A program made the position numbers and the translations under genes. The notes below the pieces were generated by a model that did not search any database, was not told where the DNA came from, and saw only the letters and a program-made list of their open reading frames with translations. A stretch of 59,941 nt of DNA, counting the filler, from Globobulimina sp. (Eukaryota), in NCBI GenBank assembly GCA_003354225.1. It is 13 parts of 13 records of this genome, joined end to end, with 100 filler letters (N's around TTAATTAATTAA, not from the genome) between each part and the next. Parts side by side here need not be neighbours in the genome. Positions count along the whole stretch, not along the records: positions 36,980 to 41,495 come from PIVH01001172.1; 12 more parts are not named here. One strand, given 5' to 3'. Shown here piece by piece: positions 15,913-41,495 of the stretch (the stretch's first letter is position 1; each line of letters begins with the position of its first letter).

Positions 15913-17526
15913 TCAAATTGCACCAAATACTTTCTCAAATTGACATACAAACTTATCCATTGTTTGTTTTTTTTTATGATCCAAAATAGCAAACACAACT
16001 TTCCTGAATACATTACAATATCGATTCTTCAACAAATCCGCAAATATCATCGCCACCATATTTGGTTTATTACCGAATACGCCGCAACCCCATGCACCCA
16101 GAACCACGCATTCATTGTCATGTTTCATTGCTAATTCTAACACACGTTTACATCTTTCTGTCATGACATGTTTTACAACATTCCATGCTCCACTTTTCCT
16201 TTGTTCTTCATCAACATTTTCATTTTTATTCTCATCCAATTTGCCATCATCGCCATATTTCTTCCTCATTGCTCGTTTAACATACATTCCAGCATTGACC
16301 GCTGGAGATGTAATAATGTCACATTTATAATATCCATTCTCAAATTGTTTAATCTGTACACCATTGCCATGTTTCATAACCACAATATCCGGACTATATA
16401 TTAAAGCATGTGAGTATAACATTGTTTTCTTTTGTTTTCTGTGATAATCATAAAATTGCCGTTGGTATTTAAGTAAAGTGGGAATCAATGTGGATGACCG
16501 CGCAATGCTCTCTTCCTGAGCCACCGCCCCTGTGTCCCACCCACCGCCCGGATTTTTGGCAGAGGAGAAATTTAACACACAAATATTTATACAGTCTCCA
16601 TATTGCAATCTTAATCTATATGCACAGTCCAATGTTGTTTCGTGATTTATTGATATCTCCATTCTCGGATATTTGCGGAGTTTATGATGGTCGATGTCGA
16701 TATATTTAAATTCATCTTTCTCTAAATATAACTCACTGTGCGCATCGCTAAAAGACATATCGTTTTTAATATTTGTTTTTTCATTCGTTTTGGGATGAAT
16801 AAAACATTGATTTTCAAGAATTTGTTTGGTTTTATTGGCAATGATTTTATATTCCTTTCGTTTTAATTTTGTATGTAATTGCGGCTCTTGAATTATTCGC
16901 CGTTTATTGTGATTTAAGGTGACATTATTACCATTTAAATCTGTGTTAAATATCAATAATAATTCATTCAACATTGCAATGGTTTGGTTAGTTTGTGATT
17001 TTCCATCATCTTTCCCGTCGTCAATGTTTTCAAATTCTTGTTTGTTATCTCGTTCATTGCTGTTCTCCGGATCGTTTCTTTGTGATTTCGGAATATTTGC
17101 AATGTCTGTTTCAAATAATAATGAACGCAAAGATTGAGTGTTTCGGTTTGTTTCTCCTGAACAATATAATCTGTCTAATTTTGATTGTTTGTCCCAAATT
17201 ATAATCTTTTGAGCATCAAATAAGTATAATACGAAATAATTGATTTTATGCATTGGAATATCACCTCCATCATCAATCATTACCCAATCTAAAAATGGCA
17301 TTTCTGCAATGTTTTCACGATCCAGATAGCCGATGGAAACATAATTTAAATCAATCCCGATGTTTGGATCATGGATTAAGCGTTTATAGACATCATACGA
17401 TGTTCGCAATTTCTTTTTCTTTTTCTTGGTTGATGAATTCATTGAATTGTCATCATTATTTTGCGACTGATAATCAGGTTTCACATAGCGTTTATGCTTT
17501 GAAGTAGTTTTCTTTTTACGCGGCAT
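15913..17526 (-). CDS. Fusion of an MJ1316/DUF504 RNA-repair domain and a bacterial-type PARG (TIGR02452/DUF2263 macrodomain)
   Basis: N-terminal RTSYDVYKRLIHDP...IGYLDR...DIPMHKINYF...IIWDKQSKLD; C-terminal VLNFSSAKNPGGG...GAVAQEESIARSS, IYSPD, DIITSPA and VLGAWGCGVFGN. Likely ATG at 17526 (MPRKKK). Confidence 0.85.
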   Translation of the reverse strand: MPRKKKTTSKHKRYVKPDYQSQNNDDNSMNSSTKKKKKKLRTSYDVYKRLIHDPNIGIDLNYVSIGYLDRENIAEMPFLDWVMIDDGGDIPMHKINYFVLYLFDAQKIIIWDKQSKLDRLYCSGETNRNTQSLRSLLFETDIANIPKSQRNDPENSNERDNKQEFENIDDGKDDGKSQTNQTIAMLNELLLIFNTDLNGNNVTLNHNKRRIIQEPQLHTKLKRKEYKIIANKTKQILENQCFIHPKTNEKTNIKNDMSFSDAHSELYLEKDEFKYIDIDHHKLRKYPRMEISINHETTLDCAYRLRLQYGDCINICVLNFSSAKNPGGGWDTGAVAQEESIARSSTLIPTLLKYQRQFYDYHRKQKKTMLYSHALIYSPDIVVMKHGNGVQIKQFENGYYKCDIITSPAVNAGMYVKRAMRKKYGDDGKLDENKNENVDEEQRKSGAWNVVKHVMTERCKRVLELAMKHDNECVVLGAWGCGVFGNKPNMVAMIFADLLKNRYCNVFRKVVFAILDHKKKQTMDKFVCQFEKVFGAI

Positions 17527-17606
17527 AATAAGATATTGTCTTGCTAACTGAATATGGAAACAACAAAAGTGAGAATGTGGATGGAATGTGAAACAAATGA
17601 AGGCAC

Positions 17607-18401
17607 TCAAAAACTATCCCACATAAATGACAAAACGTTTGTAAAAAGCAAAGCAATTATAAAATTGCAAATACTTGATCTGTCAATTTCAATTCCTATT
17701 AATTGATAACAACATGAATATTTTTTCATCAAATACTTTAATCTGTTCAATATCTCTAAAGCACATTCTTGTTTGCTATGCAATATGATACTTTTACACA
17801 ACACATCCATATCAATATCCACATTATTTTCCTTTTCTTTTCGTATAATTGCATTCATTAAATTATTTAAAATCAAATCAGAATGGAAATGCAAACGTGT
17901 TTTTAGTATTTTATTTAATTTCTCGTTTATAATCCGTACTTTTAACGTATTTACCTTTTCCGTCATTAACATGGCTGGCCATAATACAAACATTGCCATT
18001 AATAAATATATCAATGCTTCAATACTATTATAAACAATCCAAGCTCCATTATTTGTAGCATCTGTATCATATGGATGCATATATATTGATACCGTATGCC
18101 AACATGCCATAATCATTTGTAACAATAAATTTATAATCCACAAATAAAATAACTGACAATAGGTCGCAATTTTTTTGTTCATAAACACATATTTTTCACA
18201 CAAACCTGCATCAATTATGTCATCATTTGAGGTCATTGATTCAATTTGATTGACAAATATTTTTGCATACAAATAACACTCCGTAAAATATAATCTTGCT
18301 ACAATGGCCATTAATAAATCTGGAATTATTATGGTGACAATAAACACAGTCGCTTGAATCACAATAAATGCAATCCATAAAATATATGAAATGCGGTTGA
18401 A
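17607..18401 (-). CDS. Multi-pass membrane protein, C-terminal part; possible gustatory-receptor-like (7TM ion channel/DUF3537) protein
   Basis: Several TM helices, a long loop before the last helix, and the ending YQLIGIEIDRSSICNFIIALLF. Confidence 0.45.
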   Translation of the reverse strand, partial: FNRISYILWIAFIVIQATVFIVTIIIPDLLMAIVARLYFTECYLYAKIFVNQIESMTSNDDIIDAGLCEKYVFMNKKIATYCQLFYLWIINLLLQMIMACWHTVSIYMHPYDTDATNNGAWIVYNSIEALIYLLMAMFVLWPAMLMTEKVNTLKVRIINEKLNKILKTRLHFHSDLILNNLMNAIIRKEKENNVDIDMDVLCKSIILHSKQECALEILNRLKYLMKKYSCCYQLIGIEIDRSSICNFIIALLFTNVLSFMWDSF

Positions 18402-32362: not shown

Positions 32363-35300
32363 CGGTAAACATGCCATTTCCTGCTGCTGAAGACATTGTT
32401 CAAAATGCTGAAATTTACGCTTCAAGATACAATCAGCATAGACACAGCCATACATGTTGGAAAAATAATAGGCCTAAATGTCGTATGGCCATGCGGCAGC
32501 CACAAACACCTGTTACATTCTTTACTGAAATTCATGAAACTTGTGATGGTGAACCAGTTCGGAAATTTCCTGGAAGTGGTCCTGGACATGAGATCATTTC
32601 AAATCCTCCGAATCGCGGTGATGGGAATATTTTTTCAGTACCAGATCGTCGTATAATTGTAGGTAGATTGGCTAGGCGTGACGAATGGGAACAAAAAACA
32701 GTAGAATTTAGCCCTGTTACAACTGCGTGTGTTCGTTGTAACACTTCCATACAAATTTTGATGAGTGAAAGCCAAGGAAAGTCTGCAACATTTTATTGTG
32801 CGAAATACATGAGCAAGACATTATATCCACTGCAAAAAATGCTTCCGTTATTAAAGCAAGCTGAAGAGGAAAACAGAAAATATGGCTCGAAAGCTATAGA
32901 TGATGGTGCACCAACAAGAAAAGCTAAGAATATTTTGCAGAAACTCGTTAACAAATCAGGTTTAATCGAAATATCAGATCAACAAGCAGCAGCTGGTGTC
33001 ATGAATTATCCGTCAGCTCTATCAAGTCATAAATTCTGTTTCGTATATCCTTTCGATGCAATCAAACACTATAATAAAGGAAACAACGACCAACCAAACG
33101 ACTCTGATGAAGAAATTACAGCATACTTGGAATGTGAGACAGATACTGGAAATGCTGTAGCCATTTCGAATTTTGAAAAGTATAGGAGTCGTGGAAAGCA
33201 ATTAGAAAGATTGTGTCAATTTGATTATTTTGCAAGAATCCAAATTCGGACCCCAAGTAAACGAAAGTCAAAAAAAGCAAATAAAAGTTCAGTCGGCAGA
33301 AAAGCAAATAAGATTTTTCCTTTTGAAACAGATTCTAAGGCATCCAAATGTTTAGAACAAATCATTAGCTCGGTTCCAAGAATACCTCGGATAGCTGGCA
33401 AACAGAAACCACCTAAATATCCAGGTAACAAACCACATGAAAGAGAAGAGAGACTGTCATGGAATGGTGATGCCAAAACATTTGTTGAGTTTTATACATT
33501 TTTGTTCTTACCACTTGATAAGAACGGAGAACCATTGGAACCATATGATAATATTTTGCCATGGAATGAAATAAGCTCATGGGACAATTTTTGGGTTGTG
33601 TTTAACGATTTTGAAGGTTCAAATTATTGGTATGAGCGTGCAAAATTTGGAATTTTTCAAAATATGGTTAATAACATGCGTCAATCTGATTATGAGAGAT
33701 CGGAGCAAAGATTGCGATGTACCTACTGTCCAGACAAATAAGAGAAAGCAGACAATTGAAACCGGTGAAATTGAAAGTCATGACGATCTAGATGCACTTG
33801 TTCAACAAATACGGATCAAATATGGTGATGATGGAGAATTATCTGTAAAAGAAAAAAACCTTAAAAAGGCAAATAGATTCTTAGGAGACCAAATGGAACG
33901 ATATGAGGATCTTGCAAAGACAGAAAGCAGACGTTTTCAAGCTTCAATGTTCAAAAAATTCACAATGGACGATTGTAAACAAATGTTAAAAGGAGATTAC
34001 ATTGAATTTAAGGAAGAAGATATTAAACATTATGATGAAGATGGAAAAATGCAAGAAAATGCGAAACAAGTTACAGATGATAAACAGATTTTATTGCGTG
34101 ATTTTCAAAAAAAAGTTGTTGACCAATTACAAGAAATGAAAAAACAGAAGGACCCTATGCCTGGCAAGAAAGACTATCAACTATTAGCATTCATTCAAGG
34201 TATACCTGGATCTGGTAAAACAACAACTGCATCTGTATTAGCAGATTATTTAGGCATGAGTGTTTTGTTTTCTGGGACAACAGGAACTGCTGCTGCGGAA
34301 TTAAAAGCTGATGTGATTAACACACTTCTCAAATTGGGAAAAAATTATAAAGATTTTGATGATACAAAAAAGGTGGCGTACTCAAAGAAACAACATATAA
34401 TGGGTGCTTTGCAAAATATCGATTTATTAGTTATTGATGAGGTAAGTATGTTAACTCCAACTACTTTAGCAAAAATTGATAAACATTTACGAGAAACTTT
34501 CGATGCGGAATATTGTTTTGGTGGAAAAGATATCTTACTAATTGGGGACATGTTTCAATTTCCGCCTGTTGATAAAGGTTTAACAAATCCGGCATTATAT
34601 CAAGCTGCTGTTATGTTGGGACTGGGTTTACGGATGCCTAATCAACGCTTTAGCAATGGTGCGTCTTTATTTGTGATGTTTAAAAGAGTTATTTTGGATG
34701 GACAAGTTCGAGCGACACAGGAATTTGATAAATGGTTAGGAAGATTAAGAAACACAAAAATTGAATATCCAATTACCAAAGAATGGTTATCGCATTTTCG
34801 AACTTTGACACGAGAAGATTTTAAAAATAAAGAGATTGACTGGACCAGCACTGGAATAGTTGTTTCTACAAATATTGAAAGAAGAAAATTCATGGCAAAG
34901 AAGATTATTGATTATGGAATTAAATTCAATCAACCTATCTTACGTTGGATATGTCCTGTAAAAACAGGAAAAAGTGGCAACAGAAACGTATATGGACAGC
35001 TTCCTTTTGATCCTTCAGAGCATGGCTCAGGTTGGTTCGATGAGTTGATTCGATACTATGCACGCGGAGCAGCATGTGTTTTGACAGAGACCATCGATAC
35101 AAAATCAGGTTTAGGGAAAGCAACAAATGGAACTTATATTGATGTTATTTGGAAAGAAGATGGATCAGATGAAGCAGTGCCTCGTTTAGACGATATGCCT
35201 ACTGGTGAAGTAACCACTGTCAGGCAACCAGATTATATTATTATTAAAGTTAAGAAAAAATACATTGCCATTAAATTAACAGGTAGATCAATGAAAGATG

Positions 35301-36879
35301 AAGCTGGTACAGATCGAACTTATTTACAACATAATTGTGAACTATCAATTTCTGTTACTTATCACAAAATGCAAGGCAAAACAGTAGGATCAACATGTTT
35401 ATCACTGAATGCAAGACGTGGAATATGCAGCAAAATTCTTCCTACTTCATTGCCCAGCCTATATGTTGGATGCAGTCGGGTTAAAGGGTTTCCGAATCTA
35501 CGAAGGCTTCCTATGAGCAAAGAAGATGAAGAAGCATTGATGAAATTAAAATGGCATCCTTATTTACCTATTTGGTATGACAATTATGATGAAAATGGAA
35601 AATGGAAGACAAATGGATTAAAAAAACATAGACAAGATTTTGTTAGAACACACATGATCAAACTTGGTATCATAGATTTGCAAGCATTGACAATAGAAGA
35701 GGCTCGAAAATTTACTAAACACTTGGATTTGATTGTGGATTCGAAATCAACTTACATTAGTCGTGCAGTGTATCTCAAATCTTTGAAAGAGACACATGTT
35801 AAAGCAAGAAAATTAGTGTGTGAAAACAATCGGGAATTATTAATAAAAGAGCGAGCTAAAGTTATGAAAGATTTACTTACAAATCGGATTGGTAAACTAG
35901 ACGCCAAAACTGCAAGGTATTTCGCTAAAAGATTAGGAATAAATGATAGTAATAAGATGGGCAAAGCTCATGTGATTGCGGCACTACAAGAATTGGTTAG
36001 GGGAAAGGATAACTCACTACAAGAATTTGTTAAAGCTCGCAAAAACAGAAAGAGAAAAGCTGAAGATACACATCAGAGTAGTAAACATCCAAAAAAAAGA
36101 ATAAAGAGATCTGATAAAGAGGAAATGTCTGATGAAGAGATGACACCAAAGAAACAATTTGAGAATAAACAGGAAAACAATCGTCCTGCAAAACAAAACA
36201 GAACCTCCCCGCGGTTGCAAGAACAAAGACAGAGGAAATTAATGCGGTTGCAAGAACAAACACAGAGTTTGCAAGAAAAAAGACAGAGGAATTTAATGCG
36301 GTTGCAAGAACAAAGACAGAGGAATTTAATTTTAGCTACTTTTCCAAATTCTTACAATGCCTGTTGGATGGAAGCAACTGTTGAGATATTTTATCGAGCA
36401 TTCAAAATGTTACCCAGAATGCGGAGGTTAATGATGAAAATGAAAGATGAAGGATCTTACAATAAATTGTTGGTGGAAACATTCGAACAGCGACAAAATT
36501 TGGAGGACCTGGAAATTCCAATCAATCAATTTAAAGAATGGTTAAGAAGGGAAAAAATAAAATTAGTGAACCCTATTTGGTTGGCAGATAAATTTTTTCG
36601 TGATAAAAATGGATATATGGAATACAAACAGGCTACAGTTCCTACATTTTTCGCACATTGGTTAGATAGGAATGGAATTTCTACATTTAACAAGGATGAA
36701 GTTTTTGGTTATAAAAAAATGAGATGCCAGAATTGTAGCAACGCGGGAATAAATCCACCGAGAGAGTTTCATTATCCAGACATTCCTCTGACGCGTAAAT
36801 ATTTTACAGAGACGATGAGTACAGTGGTGTATCGGATAAGATGCAGACGCTATGACCACTTTTTCAATATGACCACTTT
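32363..36879 (+). mobile_element. Helitron-type rolling-circle transposon Rep-helicase ORF (partial; one frame break near 33700)
   Basis: Rep motifs QHRHSHTCWK...CR, RCNTSIQIL, FYCAKYMSK (YxxKY catalytic tyrosines) and EISDQQAA...SSHKF. PIF1/SF1B motifs GIPGSGKTT, LLVIDEVSML, FGGKDILLIGDMFQFPPV, QVR, TYHKMQGKT and YVGCSRVK. No introns seen. Confidence 0.9.
36211..36330 (+). repeat. Coding tandem repeat of about 33 bp (RLQEQRQRNLM)
   Basis: GCGGTTGCAAGAACAAAGACAGAGGAA.TTAAT, three to four copies, one shortened. Confidence 0.85.
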
Positions 36880-36979: not shown

Positions 36980-39900
36980 ATTATTATTTTTTTGCGAAGC
37001 AATACGTTCCAAAACCGACGACTTTCTTTTTTGCATAGCACCTCTTCTTTTTGTATTGCTTTGCGTGAAAAACTGCAATAAAAACTTATATATACACTCA
37101 AAGATATTCTCATTTAATATCACATTTATTATCTTAATGGAGGATATATTGCTAAATAAATTGCAAAACAAATCAATTTTTATCCACCCAAACTCATCAA
37201 ATAAATGCTTATAAACCATTGGAAGTGCGATGAAATGCAATGGATTTAACGTGATTTGTCCTAAAATATAATCCCTGCAAAATGAGGAAAATAAGCATTG
37301 TATATAGCTTGGAATTAATTTCTTGCTCATCGTAATTGCCTTTTTCGTTCTGCTATCACTTCGATCGCGGGATATCTGCGATTGTATCAACAATGACAAA
37401 CAATGCATATCCTGCTCGTTATAATTACAATGGTTATCATTGCCATTTATAATGCAATATAATATATTGATGGCGTTCCAAAAGGATTTATAATTGCAAC
37501 ACGTCTCAATATTGATGATATTATGGATCTCAAATATATTGGACACGCATTTATTTGTACCAAATATAATCTTTTCGTCATAATTGGCATAATCTGAGAT
37601 CCAATTACAATTAAAGTGCGCTACATTATTATCTTTACATTTCAACGCAAAAATAATCCCATTCCGAGGCGAAAATGTATGCACAATCGACAAGTGTTGA
37701 TTACACGACATTGGATAACAAAACTTTACATATTTCGGCGATAAAAACGTTTGATTTGTACTGGAATGATATAACACATTTGCATTATTACACAGACCCA
37801 TATCGATGCCGTTACTATTCATCACCGCATCGCGCAAATACTGCGTCCAATGGCAATACTCTGCGTTGCGTAATTTCCAATTACTCACAGTCTCAGCCAT
37901 GGATTGTGGATAAAACGTCGCATTTAGTTTAAACCGCAAATTATCAAAATCACAATACAACAGCACCGCCATTAAATGTTGTATGCTCATTGTCTGCCAT
38001 TCCTCCTCTTCCTTCATCTCAATGAAGGTGTTTTTGGGCGAATGCCGCGCCGAATTATCATCGCTATCACTCACCAACGACGGTGGCAAAGGTGTGGGCG
38101 AATTGGGTGCATGCGGCGTGATAGACTTTGCGCCATATTTTATATGTTTGGCAATGCTCGATTTCTGTAATATTAATGCTTTGCAATACGTATCGTTCCA
38201 AGAGTCGCAGGCAATTTGCAGTATATTGTTATGTAACAACTCCTCCTTGAAATTGTTGTATTTCTTATGAATATACCATCCGCGCACCGCACTGGGACTG
38301 TTATTGTTTGTTTGCGCCTCTTTTTTGCCGTGTAAATTGCCATCGAAATAATCGAATGTCTGTCCTAATTTATACACTTCTTCGTCGTCCTCCTCATCAT
38401 CTAACTCATCGTCCATATACACGGCGTTGTTGTTATTTATCCGCTGTATAAATAGCGAGATATTCGAACTGAATTTAGTGCCTTTAATGCGATGCACACC
38501 GCGGATTTGAATTAATTTCTCGGATTTGGGGGTCAATATTTCTTTCAACATTACATAATTTTGGTCTTGTTTTGGACTTTGATTGCGACTCAATGTGGAT
38601 TTGCGTGGTTGCGGTTGGAGCAGGCTGTCTTTTTCTGGCTTTATCTCGGAAATCGTCTGCTTTTCCTCGGTGGATAAGCGCAGCGTATCAAAGGTGTGGA
38701 AGAAATAACAATGGAACTTATCCAAGATTTGTTGCGTGCAAATCTCGTCGCTTTGCTTGTACCCAAAATATATCTTCATTTTCCACGGTCGGTTCTTATC
38801 TTGATCTCGGTTGCGATTATTTCGTTTCATACACGTACATTGCGAGATATTTACACAGGCATTGCCTCCCATGGCCTCACGCAAATTAGTCATAATCTGT
38901 TCCAATTCCTCGTCACTCGAATGATACCGCAGGATATGGTTGAAATCATTGATTAATTGCACATTGTTATAGTTTGATAGCGAAGTGATAAAATCGAGGA
39001 TGCGGTGGTTATATTTATTGAGCTCTTTGGTAATGGTCAAGGTCGCAGTGGATTGTCTGTGTGGATTTATGTTCCTTTTTATGAGCCATTTCCGGTAATA
39101 CTGCAATATAAAGGTCAGCCTATCAATGCAATCACAAAAGTTGGTATCTCGATGATTTTTGCAGTTGTTCCATGATTGCTGCTCAAGATCCAGCTCCGTC
39201 AGGTCTTTCATGACCGAGTCCCATTTATCGATCTGTTCCTGATACGGTTTGTTGCCATTAAAGATATGCGACCTCCGCTGCATCTGTAGATTGTAGTTAT
39301 TCTCATTCGGGTCTTGTATAAATTCCTCTTCGTATTTGGTGTGGTTGTGTTTCCTATATAATATCCTATACTTTATGGCTAAATCTGTAAATTCCATGAC
39401 AGAGAACAGTATCTTGCTCGTGGGAGCCGCAGTGAATGCGTTATACAACGAAGGACATAACACCACCGCCATGGAGCGAGAATTCATTTTGTTCATCTTC
39501 TCACGAATCACAATATCGACGCACAAATCCAGCAACCACTCAAAGGACGACTTGTACGGCTCTTTGATCAATTTGATCACTTTCGGGATGTCAGTGGCGT
39601 GCTTACACGCGGACAATATGGCAATATCGATATTATTCAATACCTTGACTGGCAAATCGTGGTAAAACGCTTTAATCGCATTGGCGATACTATGCGTATC
39701 GTCAGTTTTGGCGCACTTATTATTGGCATTCAAGTCTTGTTTGAATTTCTTAAACTGCGTACTATCCGCACTGAATCTGAAGATCTCCCTCGTTTTAAAG
39801 CCGCCTTTGGCCTTCAAATAATTGCGTAAATGGATCAATATCTTCGGTATTCGAGACGCATAATCCACAAATTTGATCGTACCACGCACGCATTCCAAGG

Positions 39901-41300
39901 GAATACCAAACTGTTCGCCGCATTGCAAACGCAACACTTTCTCCAATCGCTCCCGAATCGGCAAAGAAGACACCATTTTCTTATCAATATCGTACTGGAA
40001 CTTATTGCCACGCAAATTGAGACTCGCCTCGTTCTGCAAACGCGTAAACGTCGCGGAATATTTCTTGATTTTCTTGTATTTTACGATATGTTCCCGGGGC
40101 AGACACGTATTCACATCAATTAAGCTCGTATGGTTGCTCAATAACTGCAGGTACTCAATCAAACAGTGCTGCGGTATCTTGTTATTGGAGACCTTCAGCG
40201 CGCGGATAAAGGTCCGGTTATATGACAACGAGCTGATTAACAGTCCGATATGTTTATCATTGAACTTATTATTGGACAAATCTATAAATTTGAGGTTGGA
40301 TAGATACGCAATGCCGGATAAGAAGGGTTCCAATCCCAGCGACAAATCGTTGGTATTCATGATCAACCGCTCCAATTTCGTCGCTCTTCCACACAAATTC
40401 GCCAATGAATGGCCTAAGATGTTGGGGCCGGTAACCACCGCTTTCTTGCTGTCTTCCTTTGCTTTCTTCTGTTTGCTTTTCAGTTTGTTCTTCTTCCCAA
40501 TAATGCCGCTGCCAAAATTATTGTTTCTGAAAATGTTTTGTTTGCTGATATTGTCGCTGATATTGAGCGATTCCAAACAAATACAACAATGCAAATTGTT
40601 TAAGATGTTCGACAGGGTCATACTATCGAAATTATTGCCCGCCAACGACAATGACACAATGGTGTAATTACCAATGTTGCCGCCAAGCAATCGATACTGC
40701 AACAACTGACATATAATATGGCTGCCTTTGGCCGCTAAGTTATTGTAACTTAAATCCAATGTCAAGCGCATCAACTCGCGACATTGTATAATGTCACAAC
40801 GTGTCGGTCGGTACGCTAGCAACACATTGTTGTTCTGCGACTGGTGCTGTGTGATACTCGTTGGTTTGGTGTGTTTGCGTGACATGAAATGCAACGACGA
40901 GGCACTCACACTGGCATTGGCAGTGCTGATGGGCGCAGTGCTCGGATCCGCCGCACAGTGCTCCTCGACACTGGTATCGGACTTTTCATCCTCGTCTTCT
41001 TCCTCAAGCACAAGCTCTTGGTCCTCCTCCTCCGCATTGTCTGTTATGTATTGTAAGCCCGAGTTGTTCGCCAACGCGCCTTCGAATATTTTATGCAACT
41101 GCTCACTGGACATATTGCATCGGGACAACTTCAGACACTGCAAAGCCTGCGCCCGTTGCACAAAATTGCTCAGTTTGCGAGCACCGTGATCTCCGATCAA
41201 ATTGCCACTGAAATCCAAGTACAATAAGCACTGCAAATGGTGCTTAATCCCGATGTTGTTATAGTTGTTAATGTGCAATCCGTTGAAGAATATGTTGCCA
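36980..41300 (-). CDS. Multidomain protein: RI-like LRRs, RhoGAP, unnamed helical domain, ADP-ribosyltransferase-like domain (both ends incomplete)
   Basis: LRRs LYLDFSGNLIGDHGA, LTLDLSYNNL and LKFIDLSNNKF. RhoGAP IPKIL...EIFRFS...AIKAFYHDLP...NKMNSRSMAVVLCPSL. ART-like region AVLLYCD...LYHS...PMSC...GIIFAL...FNCNWISDYANYDEKIIFG. Confidence 0.8.
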
Positions 41301-41304
41301 CATG

Positions 41305-41424
41305 AATAATACCATAATAAATACCCATAATAAATAATAATAATACCCATAATAAATACCATAATATACATATAAGAATACCATAATAAATAATCCAATA
41401 AATACCATAATAAATACCAAATAA
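41305..41424. repeat. Degenerate tandem repeat CCATAATAAATA
   Basis: About seven imperfect copies; produces the spurious YLLWY start of the 1488-aa ORF. Confidence 0.85.
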
Positions 41425-41429
41425 TTTGT

Positions 41430-41495
41430 TGGGGCTGCCTCAGGCTTTGAACCTGAATCTTCTGGATATATCTATCCAGTGCTCTACTTGAGCTA
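41430..41495 (-). ncRNA. tRNA-like element (pseudo-tRNA or tRNA-derived SINE head), 5' end cut by the contig end
   Basis: - strand: TAGCTCAAGTAGAGC (D arm/A box), CTGGA-TAGATATA-TCCAG (anticodon-like arm, 8-nt loop), TCAGG-TTCAAAG-CCTGA (T arm/B box), GGCAGCCCCA. Confidence 0.65.

Follow-up and report, generated by a model that had tools for sequence, protein, structure and literature searches.

A foraminiferal LRR-RhoGAP protein fragment with a predicted ADP-ribosyltransferase-fold cassette and a substituted active site

The locus described here raises the question of whether a eukaryotic protein joins a RhoGAP, a GTPase-activating protein (GAP) domain directed at Rho, to an ADP-ribosyltransferase (ART) fold in one polypeptide, and of what the second domain does there. 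Intracellular eukaryotic ADP-ribosylation is usually credited to PARPs and sirtuins, enzymes of the R-S-E type have mostly been described as toxins of bacteria and ecto-enzymes of vertebrates, and foraminifera are known for extreme cytoskeletal dynamics. The window, i.e. the whole stretch of DNA that was analysed (59,941 nucleotides including filler; Globobulimina sp., assembly GCA_003354225.1), includes a 4.5 kb contig (PIVH01001172.1; window 36980-41495), in which an earlier reading of the sequence alone (the sequence-only reading) had seen leucine-rich repeats (LRRs) of the ribonuclease inhibitor (RI) type, a RhoGAP domain and a C-terminal ART-like region. Translation of the contig gave a minus-strand frame that contains no stop codon between 41398 and 36980, where the contig ends; the protein P0003 encoded therein carries, in this order and in one uninterrupted frame, RI-type LRRs, RhoGAP, an N-module of helices, the ART fold and a C-module (Table 1). 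Reading frame, domains, fold, family membership, fixed substitutions and purifying selection of this LRR-RhoGAP-cassette protein are, taken together, regarded as very probably correct.

Residues 1085-1440 of P0003 were modelled with AlphaFold2 using alignment A1 (query domain plus 43 short family matches, 44 rows) as input, resulting in a predicted local distance difference test score (pLDDT) of 81 and a predicted template modelling score (pTM) of 0.81. The model was compared with 48,161 Protein Data Bank (PDB) representatives using VIA-align. All 15 chains at Z ≥ 8 were ARTs, as were the 17 best rows (Z 11.0-7.8), and the ART matches covered model residues 16-186, corresponding to residues 1100-1270 of P0003. 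The best match was a Listeria ART toxin (8za7_B, Z 11.0); rat ART2.2 (1gxy; Z 10.2, root-mean-square deviation (rmsd) 2.8, 137 residues), iota-like CPILE-a (5gtt; Z 9.8), C3 enzymes (Z 9.4 for C3stau2 and 9.2; C3 structures 1ojz and 1r45), ExoS (6gn0_E; Z 9.0, rmsd 3.6, 130 residues aligned) and VIP2 (1qs1; Z 8.9) were also matched, and Certhrax, C3bot2, Vis, C2-I, XopAI, HopU1, SpvB and SidE were found among the 17 best rows. The top rows of a Foldseek search were nearly all R-S-E ARTs (best E 0.018), the top row in a viral structure library was an iridovirus 'ADP-ribosyltransferase exoenzyme' (E 2.5e-3), and Atlas language-model features led to ART clusters (0.91), which was taken as a lead only. 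In the AlphaFold2 model, VLYHSST forms strand 1, MSCN forms strand 2 and E1242 is placed just before strand 5, so that the motif equivalences proposed from the sequence (LYHS at the YRG, PMSCN at the STS and NYDE at the ExE position) appear to be correct; these residue equivalences are based on secondary structure and motif order, and the fold on predicted models. According to the model, the C-terminal domain of P0003 thus has the split-sheet fold of R-S-E-clade ARTs and follows the RhoGAP in the same frame; a structural comparison with ARTs, VIP2 and C3 had been proposed as a check by the sequence-only reading.

The sequence-only reading had placed the ART-like region at 37980-37550; its ART-like character held, whereas the conserved unit turned out to be much larger. 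Judged by sequence, the family cassette comprises ~760 residues (~680-1440 of P0003), i.e. the helical N-module, the ART fold and the C-module. Residues 975-1440 were subjected to a HMMER scan against 1.84 billion representatives, in which 1206 matches, counted as representative clusters, reached E ≤ 1e-3; the stricter limits of E ≤ 1e-10 and E ≤ 1e-30 were passed by 287 and 8 of them, respectively (best E 1.9e-122). From 150 listed matches, 132 domain sequences with a domain i-E ≤ 1e-10, reaching from query position ≤ 40 to ≥ 190, were collected, with fragments such as P0007-P0011 excluded. The family consensus reads LYCD..L..FS.TFR, FYHG, P-T-S-T-[TS], VA..F..G.II.L and F.CSW.S.F..E.E.LF.GG. 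A tyrosine (Tyr1115 in P0003) was kept in 130 of the 132 sequences, the helix Arg in 112 and the strand-2 Ser in 128. The strand-1 position was occupied by His in 95, Cys in 18 and Ser in 11 sequences and never by Arg, and was followed by Gly in 122; the first Glu of E-x-E was found in 125 and the second in 130. His, Ser and both Glu occurred together in 88 of the 132. By this motif set, the family resembles enzymes of the R-S-E type, but with His-Gly in strand 1 as in PARPs.

Many family members measure ~750-790 residues and thus consist of the cassette alone. Among members scanned with Pfam, 6 of 48 carried PH, SAM, PITH, FKBP, CAP-Gly or fn3 domains and 11 of 61 carried WH1, UBA, PUB, PITH, TLDc, C1 or PH domains, while a RhoGAP was found in none of these 109 other members. 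Similarly, none of 159 family proteins matched the LRR-RhoGAP part of P0003, and 42 of them matched it within residues 678-1079 (33 upstream of residue 900). The idea of a special GAP-plus-ART invention in the manner of ExoS/ExoT was therefore abandoned: the ART part is a mobile cassette on PH, WH1, PUB/UBA, PITH, SAM, CAP-Gly and C1 heads, and the RhoGAP-LRR part is one such head. Out of 20 members looked up, 18, which come from EukProt or MMETSP, were labelled Nonionella stella, Bolivina argentea or Elphidium margaritaceum; the EukProt sets of these foraminifera are presumably transcriptomes. A word-indexed search with whole P0003 gave no match among proteins of 792-2520 aa, which reflects the limit of the index and does not show P0003 to be unique; 3 matches were obtained with the C-terminal piece and 14 with profile A1, none of them named. 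In a pattern scan of viral contigs based on a tighter alignment (A3), 223 patterns matched and no relative was confirmed. A literature search at listing level yielded no account of the cassette family or of a eukaryotic RhoGAP-ART protein, and earlier ART surveys may describe the family.

As separate observations on the family, the cassette recurs behind PUB/UBA domains, i.e. p97/ubiquitin adaptors (P0086, P0088, P0089, P0099, P0136), and behind PITH (P0053, P0131, P0135), which hints at a link of the family with the ubiquitin-proteasome system. P0030 (1827 aa, labelled Bolivina argentea) carries two ART cores at residues 209-395 and 956-1163.

The N-module was defined by alignment A2 and displays the motifs C..C..RN.RDR, Q.LD.IHC...HSFD.G.RL, YSFG.RY.YW and WYI..KY..LK.ELL.N. 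Its model was all-helical (pLDDT 70), and no known fold was recognised for it (best VIA-align Z 4.8, Atlas scores < 0.8). Residues ~815-871 contain near-invariant Arg, Asp, His, His and Asp as well as conserved Cys residues (C..C ... D..HC...H..D), which the model distributes between a loop and a long helix within its high-confidence part; the predicted arrangement is reminiscent of a metal site or of a further active site. The fold-search matches of the ART domain stop short of the C-module, of which ~100-130 residues are missing in P0003, judged against P0005.

As the sequence-only reading had noted, the catalytic residues of this copy are partly degenerate (Y1130, S1179 and Y1240 in place of the family Arg, Gly and Glu). 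Compared with the family, P0003 has Tyr for the helix Arg (TFR to TFY), H-S for H-G, S-C-N for S-T-[TS] with the first Ser (S1198) kept, and Y-D-E for E-x-E with the second Glu (E1242) present; His, strand-2 Ser and catalytic Glu are hence retained. Motif conservation among foraminiferal homologues, which had been suggested as a check, was found for the wider family (H-G, S-T-[ST], E-x-E), but the closest relatives share the substitutions of P0003: P0004 (62% identical to the query over the matched stretches), P0005 and P0006 carry TFYP, YHS[ST]T, PMSCN or PMACS, and NYDE (DFGE in P0006), and the Bolivina fragments P0007 and P0010, along with P0011, carry the same motifs as far as each reaches. 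The substitutions are therefore not a private decay of P0003. His1178 and Glu1242 are retained in all close relatives covering these positions, and six of seven sequences that cover WISDYANYDE have it unchanged, at an overall identity of 57-75%. The first-Glu position is occupied by Tyr in P0003 and in five of six covering close relatives, and by Phe in the sixth. A FastTree phylogeny calculated from 133 core sequences grouped the query with P0004, P0005 and P0006 (support 1.0) in a clade that lies within R-H-G-S-E-E sequences. A Y-H-S-S-E-E sequence branches off next, with weak support (0.49), which suggests that Arg and Gly were changed before the first Glu was lost. In the family as a whole, this Glu was absent from 7 of the 20 sequences that lack the helix Arg and from none of the 112 that have it (Fisher p 7e-7, calculated on related sequences).

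For independent support, contigs of four public runs from four studies (X1, X5, X6 and X8) were compared with the gene. All four were colinear with it and showed no intron-like joint within; X1 and X5 were near-identical to the window, and X6 and X8, which may be RNA runs, were 90-96% similar to it and kept the same order from the LRRs through RhoGAP and N-module to the ART domain. The junction between RhoGAP and cassette was crossed by X1 record 3 (38295-39562), X6 record 21 (38880-39531) and X8 record 29 (39134-39664) and overlapped by X5 records 13 and 14. Among the 40 best-supported of 281 sequence differences to three other data sets, 35 were synonymous, 34 were located at codon position 3, and the sole indel comprised 3 bases. 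The synonymous bias, the 3-base indel and the bridged junction indicate a real gene under purifying selection and exclude an assembly chimera at that junction. Two joints, 38723 to 41332 in X5 and 41335 to 41419 in X1, were set aside, as their short sides lie in repeat sequence.

Both domains that had been read upstream of the cassette were recovered by profile. LRR_6 (Pfam) matched the N-terminal 470 residues of P0003 with 30.4 bits (E 3.2e-7; cut-off 23.4 bits), six LxxLxLxxNxL-type pattern matches were located at residues 25, 53, 214, 309, 336 and 365, and the LRR protein DRC5 was matched weakly in a PDB sequence search (E 0.0098). The RhoGAP was matched by PF00620 (E 6.6e-14, 52.5 bits versus a cut-off of 24.5 bits) and, in the PDB, by RLIP76 (1.7e-5), ARHGAP11A (5.9e-5) and p50RhoGAP (2e-4). 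Its arginine finger is R508 in EIFRFS (codon 39776-39778), aligned with the Arg of GLFRKSG in ARHGAP11A and of GIYRVSG in RLIP76.

Among known systems, the R-S-E mono-ARTs with a helical N-subdomain (ART2.2, C3, VIP2, CPILE-a, 8za7_B) are closest, sharing the same fold over ~140 residues with the P0003 domain (Z 11.0-8.9, rmsd 2.8-4.3) at 12-15% identity, together with a strand-2 Ser motif followed by A..F and a Glu at the front of strand 5; the wider foraminiferal family even has the full E-x-E. Unlike these enzymes, the family shows the strand-1 His-Gly in place of Arg and an extra invariant helix Arg, and stands in an intracellular multi-domain context with flanking N- and C-modules, with Y-x-E in P0003. 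ExoS/ExoT likewise combine a Rho-directed GAP bearing an arginine finger with an R-S-E-type ART fold in one polypeptide, with the comparison covering the ART folds; a secretion signal and the dependence of the ART on 14-3-3 further characterise these toxins. The GAP of P0003, however, is of the eukaryotic PF00620 type, whereas that of ExoS is an unrelated bacterial fold; P0003 is endogenous rather than injected, its ART part is a family cassette found on many heads, and the first Glu of ExE is absent. The parallel is thus one of architecture only. LRRC9 and NEURL4 are further intracellular eukaryotic proteins whose ART-fold domains are missed by Pfam. According to PMC7955679, LRRC9 combines LRRs with an ART-like domain, which lies between two LRR blocks, is grouped with PARPs and is without conserved catalytic residues, and PMC8932523 gives the PARP-like motif H-Y-E[D-Q] for NEURL4. 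The foraminiferal family differs by S-T-S and E-x-E and by having R-S-E enzymes as best structural matches, a separation based on published motifs.

The findings are best explained by P0003 being a fragment of a foraminiferal cytosolic signalling protein with a re-specialised, NAD+-binding ART cassette, and this statement as a whole is given a probability of roughly 0.45. In the head, the LRRs would bind partners, and the RhoGAP with its arginine finger would most likely switch off Rho-family GTPases. Foraminifera have greatly multiplied the cassette and joined its copies to many targeting domains. Since Y-H-G, S-T-S/T, E-x-E and the invariant helix Arg are present in most copies, canonical members are most likely working NAD+-using mono-ADP-ribosyltransferases. 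In the derived subclade, three residues (helix Arg, Gly following His, first Glu) were exchanged, and the exchanges have stayed fixed. That His, Ser and the catalytic Glu were kept, and that the loop before strand 5 is unusually conserved, points to a site that may still bind NAD+, with P0003 acting as a hydrolase or as a transferase to a non-arginine acceptor near the Rho machinery. For P0003, the binding of NAD+, catalysis of any kind, a target and a connection to Rho are all putative, as is the regulation of Rho and the cytoskeleton via ADP-ribosylation that the sequence-only reading had proposed.

Several points weigh against this explanation. The gene is truncated at both ends of the contig, so that its ends are missing. 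At the sequence level, Pfam gave no match to P0003 beyond the RhoGAP, with PF01129 and PF03496 absent at E ≤ 10, and neither a PDB sequence search with the single domain nor a profile search with A1 returned an ART, all matches being chance matches. The cassette family, whose flanking modules are its own by sequence, as a whole goes undetected by Pfam models: no ART family was matched in 109 full-length members (48 scanned at E ≤ 1e-3, 61 at E ≤ 1e-4), and only 2 of the 44 rows of A1 reached PF01129, with E 0.037 or worse. Foldseek gave zero matches at E ≤ 1e-3 for the ART-domain model. As to residues, the strand-1 Arg of the clade is replaced by His1178, P0003 lacks three further family residues (helix Arg, Gly following His, first Glu of ExE), and P0006 has Ala for the strand-2 Ser; taken together, these changes are equally compatible with a pseudoenzyme. 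The Asn of the RhoGAP NLA.V..P.L helix is conserved and important, and Ser609 of P0003 stands opposite this Asn of both RLIP76 and ARHGAP11A. Because the sequences are related, the coupling of Arg and Glu loss amounts to about four independent events, and the substitution counts cover the best-supported differences only.

The strongest competing explanation, tentatively held and rated somewhat below the preferred one, is that the ART fold of the subclade has lost catalysis. As a scaffold or as a module that binds NAD+, ADP-ribose or another protein, it would control the activity or the location of the RhoGAP. The change of three family-invariant positions (helix Arg to Tyr, Gly to Ser, first Glu to Tyr) speaks for such a pseudoenzyme, as do the additional loss of the strand-2 Ser in P0006 and the fact that the first Glu is lost in the family only together with the helix Arg, like one site being dismantled; PMC7955679 also reads the eukaryotic ART-like domains of LRRC9 and TASOR, with their divergent sites, as pseudoenzymes. 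On the other hand, His1178 and Glu1242 persist throughout the covering close relatives, and the WISDYANYDE loop shows a higher conservation than the entire domain. As general background, R-S-E enzymes without the first Glu/Gln tend to keep NADase (NAD glycohydrolase) activity and lose arginine transfer, which also argues against loss of all catalysis. The same residue bears on the opposite possibility, namely that P0003 is a fully active bifunctional enzyme like ExoS/ExoT, with GAP activity on Rho and arginine ADP-ribosylation of cytoskeletal or GTPase targets. Its fold resembles those of ExoS and C3, and arginine finger and catalytic Glu are present, but arginine-directed transfer requires the first Glu of ExE, which is replaced by an aromatic residue in P0003 and in all six covering close relatives, and with no RhoGAP in the other 109 members the family function is not tied to Rho; this possibility is considered quite unlikely. 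Even less probable is that the resemblance in fold is misleading and that the domain has a function unrelated to NAD+. The missing sequence-level link to ARTs, Foldseek E-values all above 1e-3 and the tool's own note that VIA-align Z < 8 may mean only a common arrangement could be read in this way, but every chain at Z ≥ 8 is an ART, and the family-invariant residues fall on the three ART motif positions at strands 1, 2 and 5. The re-specialised cassette is kept as the preferred explanation.

Table 1 Features of the P0003 contig in window coordinates
Feature	Residues of P0003	Window position	Strand	Basis and remarks
P0003, single open reading frame	1440 codons	36980..41299	-	No 5' start, no 3' stop (contig ends)
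RI-type LRRs	1-445	39965..41299	-	LRR_6 profile; interrupted by two low-complexity inserts; region continues upstream of contig
RhoGAP	462-642	39374..39916	-	PDB RhoGAP alignments; Pfam core 485-619 = 39847-39443
N-module	~680-1057	38129..39262	-	Match to family proteins; consensus in A2
ART-fold domain (predicted)	1100-1270	37490..38002	-	AlphaFold2 model and VIA-align
Family helix Arg	Y1130	37910-37912	-	Column statistics
Strand 1	H1178	37766-37768	-	Column statistics
Family Gly	S1179	next residue after H1178	-	Column statistics
Strand-2 Ser	S1198	37706-37708	-	Column statistics
Family first Glu	Y1240	37580-37582	-	Column statistics
Catalytic Glu position	E1242	37574-37576	-	Column statistics
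C-module	1271-1440	36980..37489	-	Alpha/beta; conserved in many family members; cut by contig end
Non-gene contig end		41300..41495	.	Period-12 tandem repeat 41300-41424 and high-copy element

The stretch consists of 13 joined contigs of ~4.5 kb each, separated by spacers of the form N44-TTAATTAATTAA-N44 (12 spacer motifs); as the contigs are unlinked, neighbourhood across spacers is meaningless. Although open, the frame above 41299 was rejected as coding sequence, as it runs through a 12-base tandem repeat in a high-copy element. Word depth in X1 was ~7 over the gene versus 6976 at 41359-41495, and the contigs of X1, X5 and X8 all diverge from the window sequence exactly at 41299/41300. The top ~200 bases are therefore assigned to a high-copy element, with the gene going on upstream elsewhere, and 41299-36980 was treated as an internal fragment of a longer gene. 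One X5 contig contains 997 further bases beyond 41299, and a 30-letter consensus of the loose ends leaves the frame open (judged by eye); beyond 36980, contigs of X5 and X6 extend by 183 and 620 bases, respectively. By eye, 41300-41495 includes a stretch resembling the 3' half of a tRNA, for which ARAGORN and Rfam scans gave no match; this contig end may be a tRNA-derived short interspersed nuclear element (SINE) or an assembly join.

Two other contigs were noted. The unlinked PARG of the sequence-only reading was confirmed on the minus strand at window 15916-17613, where a 566-aa open reading frame encodes a microbial-type PARG (PF10021, E 1.1e-35). The other domain of this protein, MJ1316 for RNA cyclic-end recognition (PF04457, E 1.7e-7), is an uncommon partner for an enzyme that removes ADP-ribose. 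Provided that the contigs belong to one genome, the protein is a candidate eraser. On the plus strand, a 1101-aa frame running into the contig end (window 33575-36877) contains a PIF1-like helicase core (PF05970, E 1.1e-14) with long unassigned flanks and may belong to a Helitron-type element.

In the widest and rather unlikely extension of these results, Foraminifera would run a large intracellular mono-ADP-ribosylation system, with hundreds of 'H-S-ExE' cassettes on cytoskeletal, lipid and ubiquitin/p97 adaptors, the candidate PARG as eraser, and a RhoGAP-fused subclade whose new acceptor chemistry would be aimed at Rho-family GTPases or their partners, as an endogenous counterpart of C3 and ExoS/T. 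What the locus discloses is an R-S-E-like fold family of more than 1200 clusters, expressed in several foraminifera, with a His-for-Arg site, flanking modules of its own and cytosolic partner domains, and this family offers a testable entry into an unexplored signalling system. The RhoGAP-fused copy represents a natural experiment, in which three coupled substitutions have been fixed across species, and could reveal which residues of the ART fold determine the acceptor, or how an enzyme with this fold becomes a pseudoenzyme.

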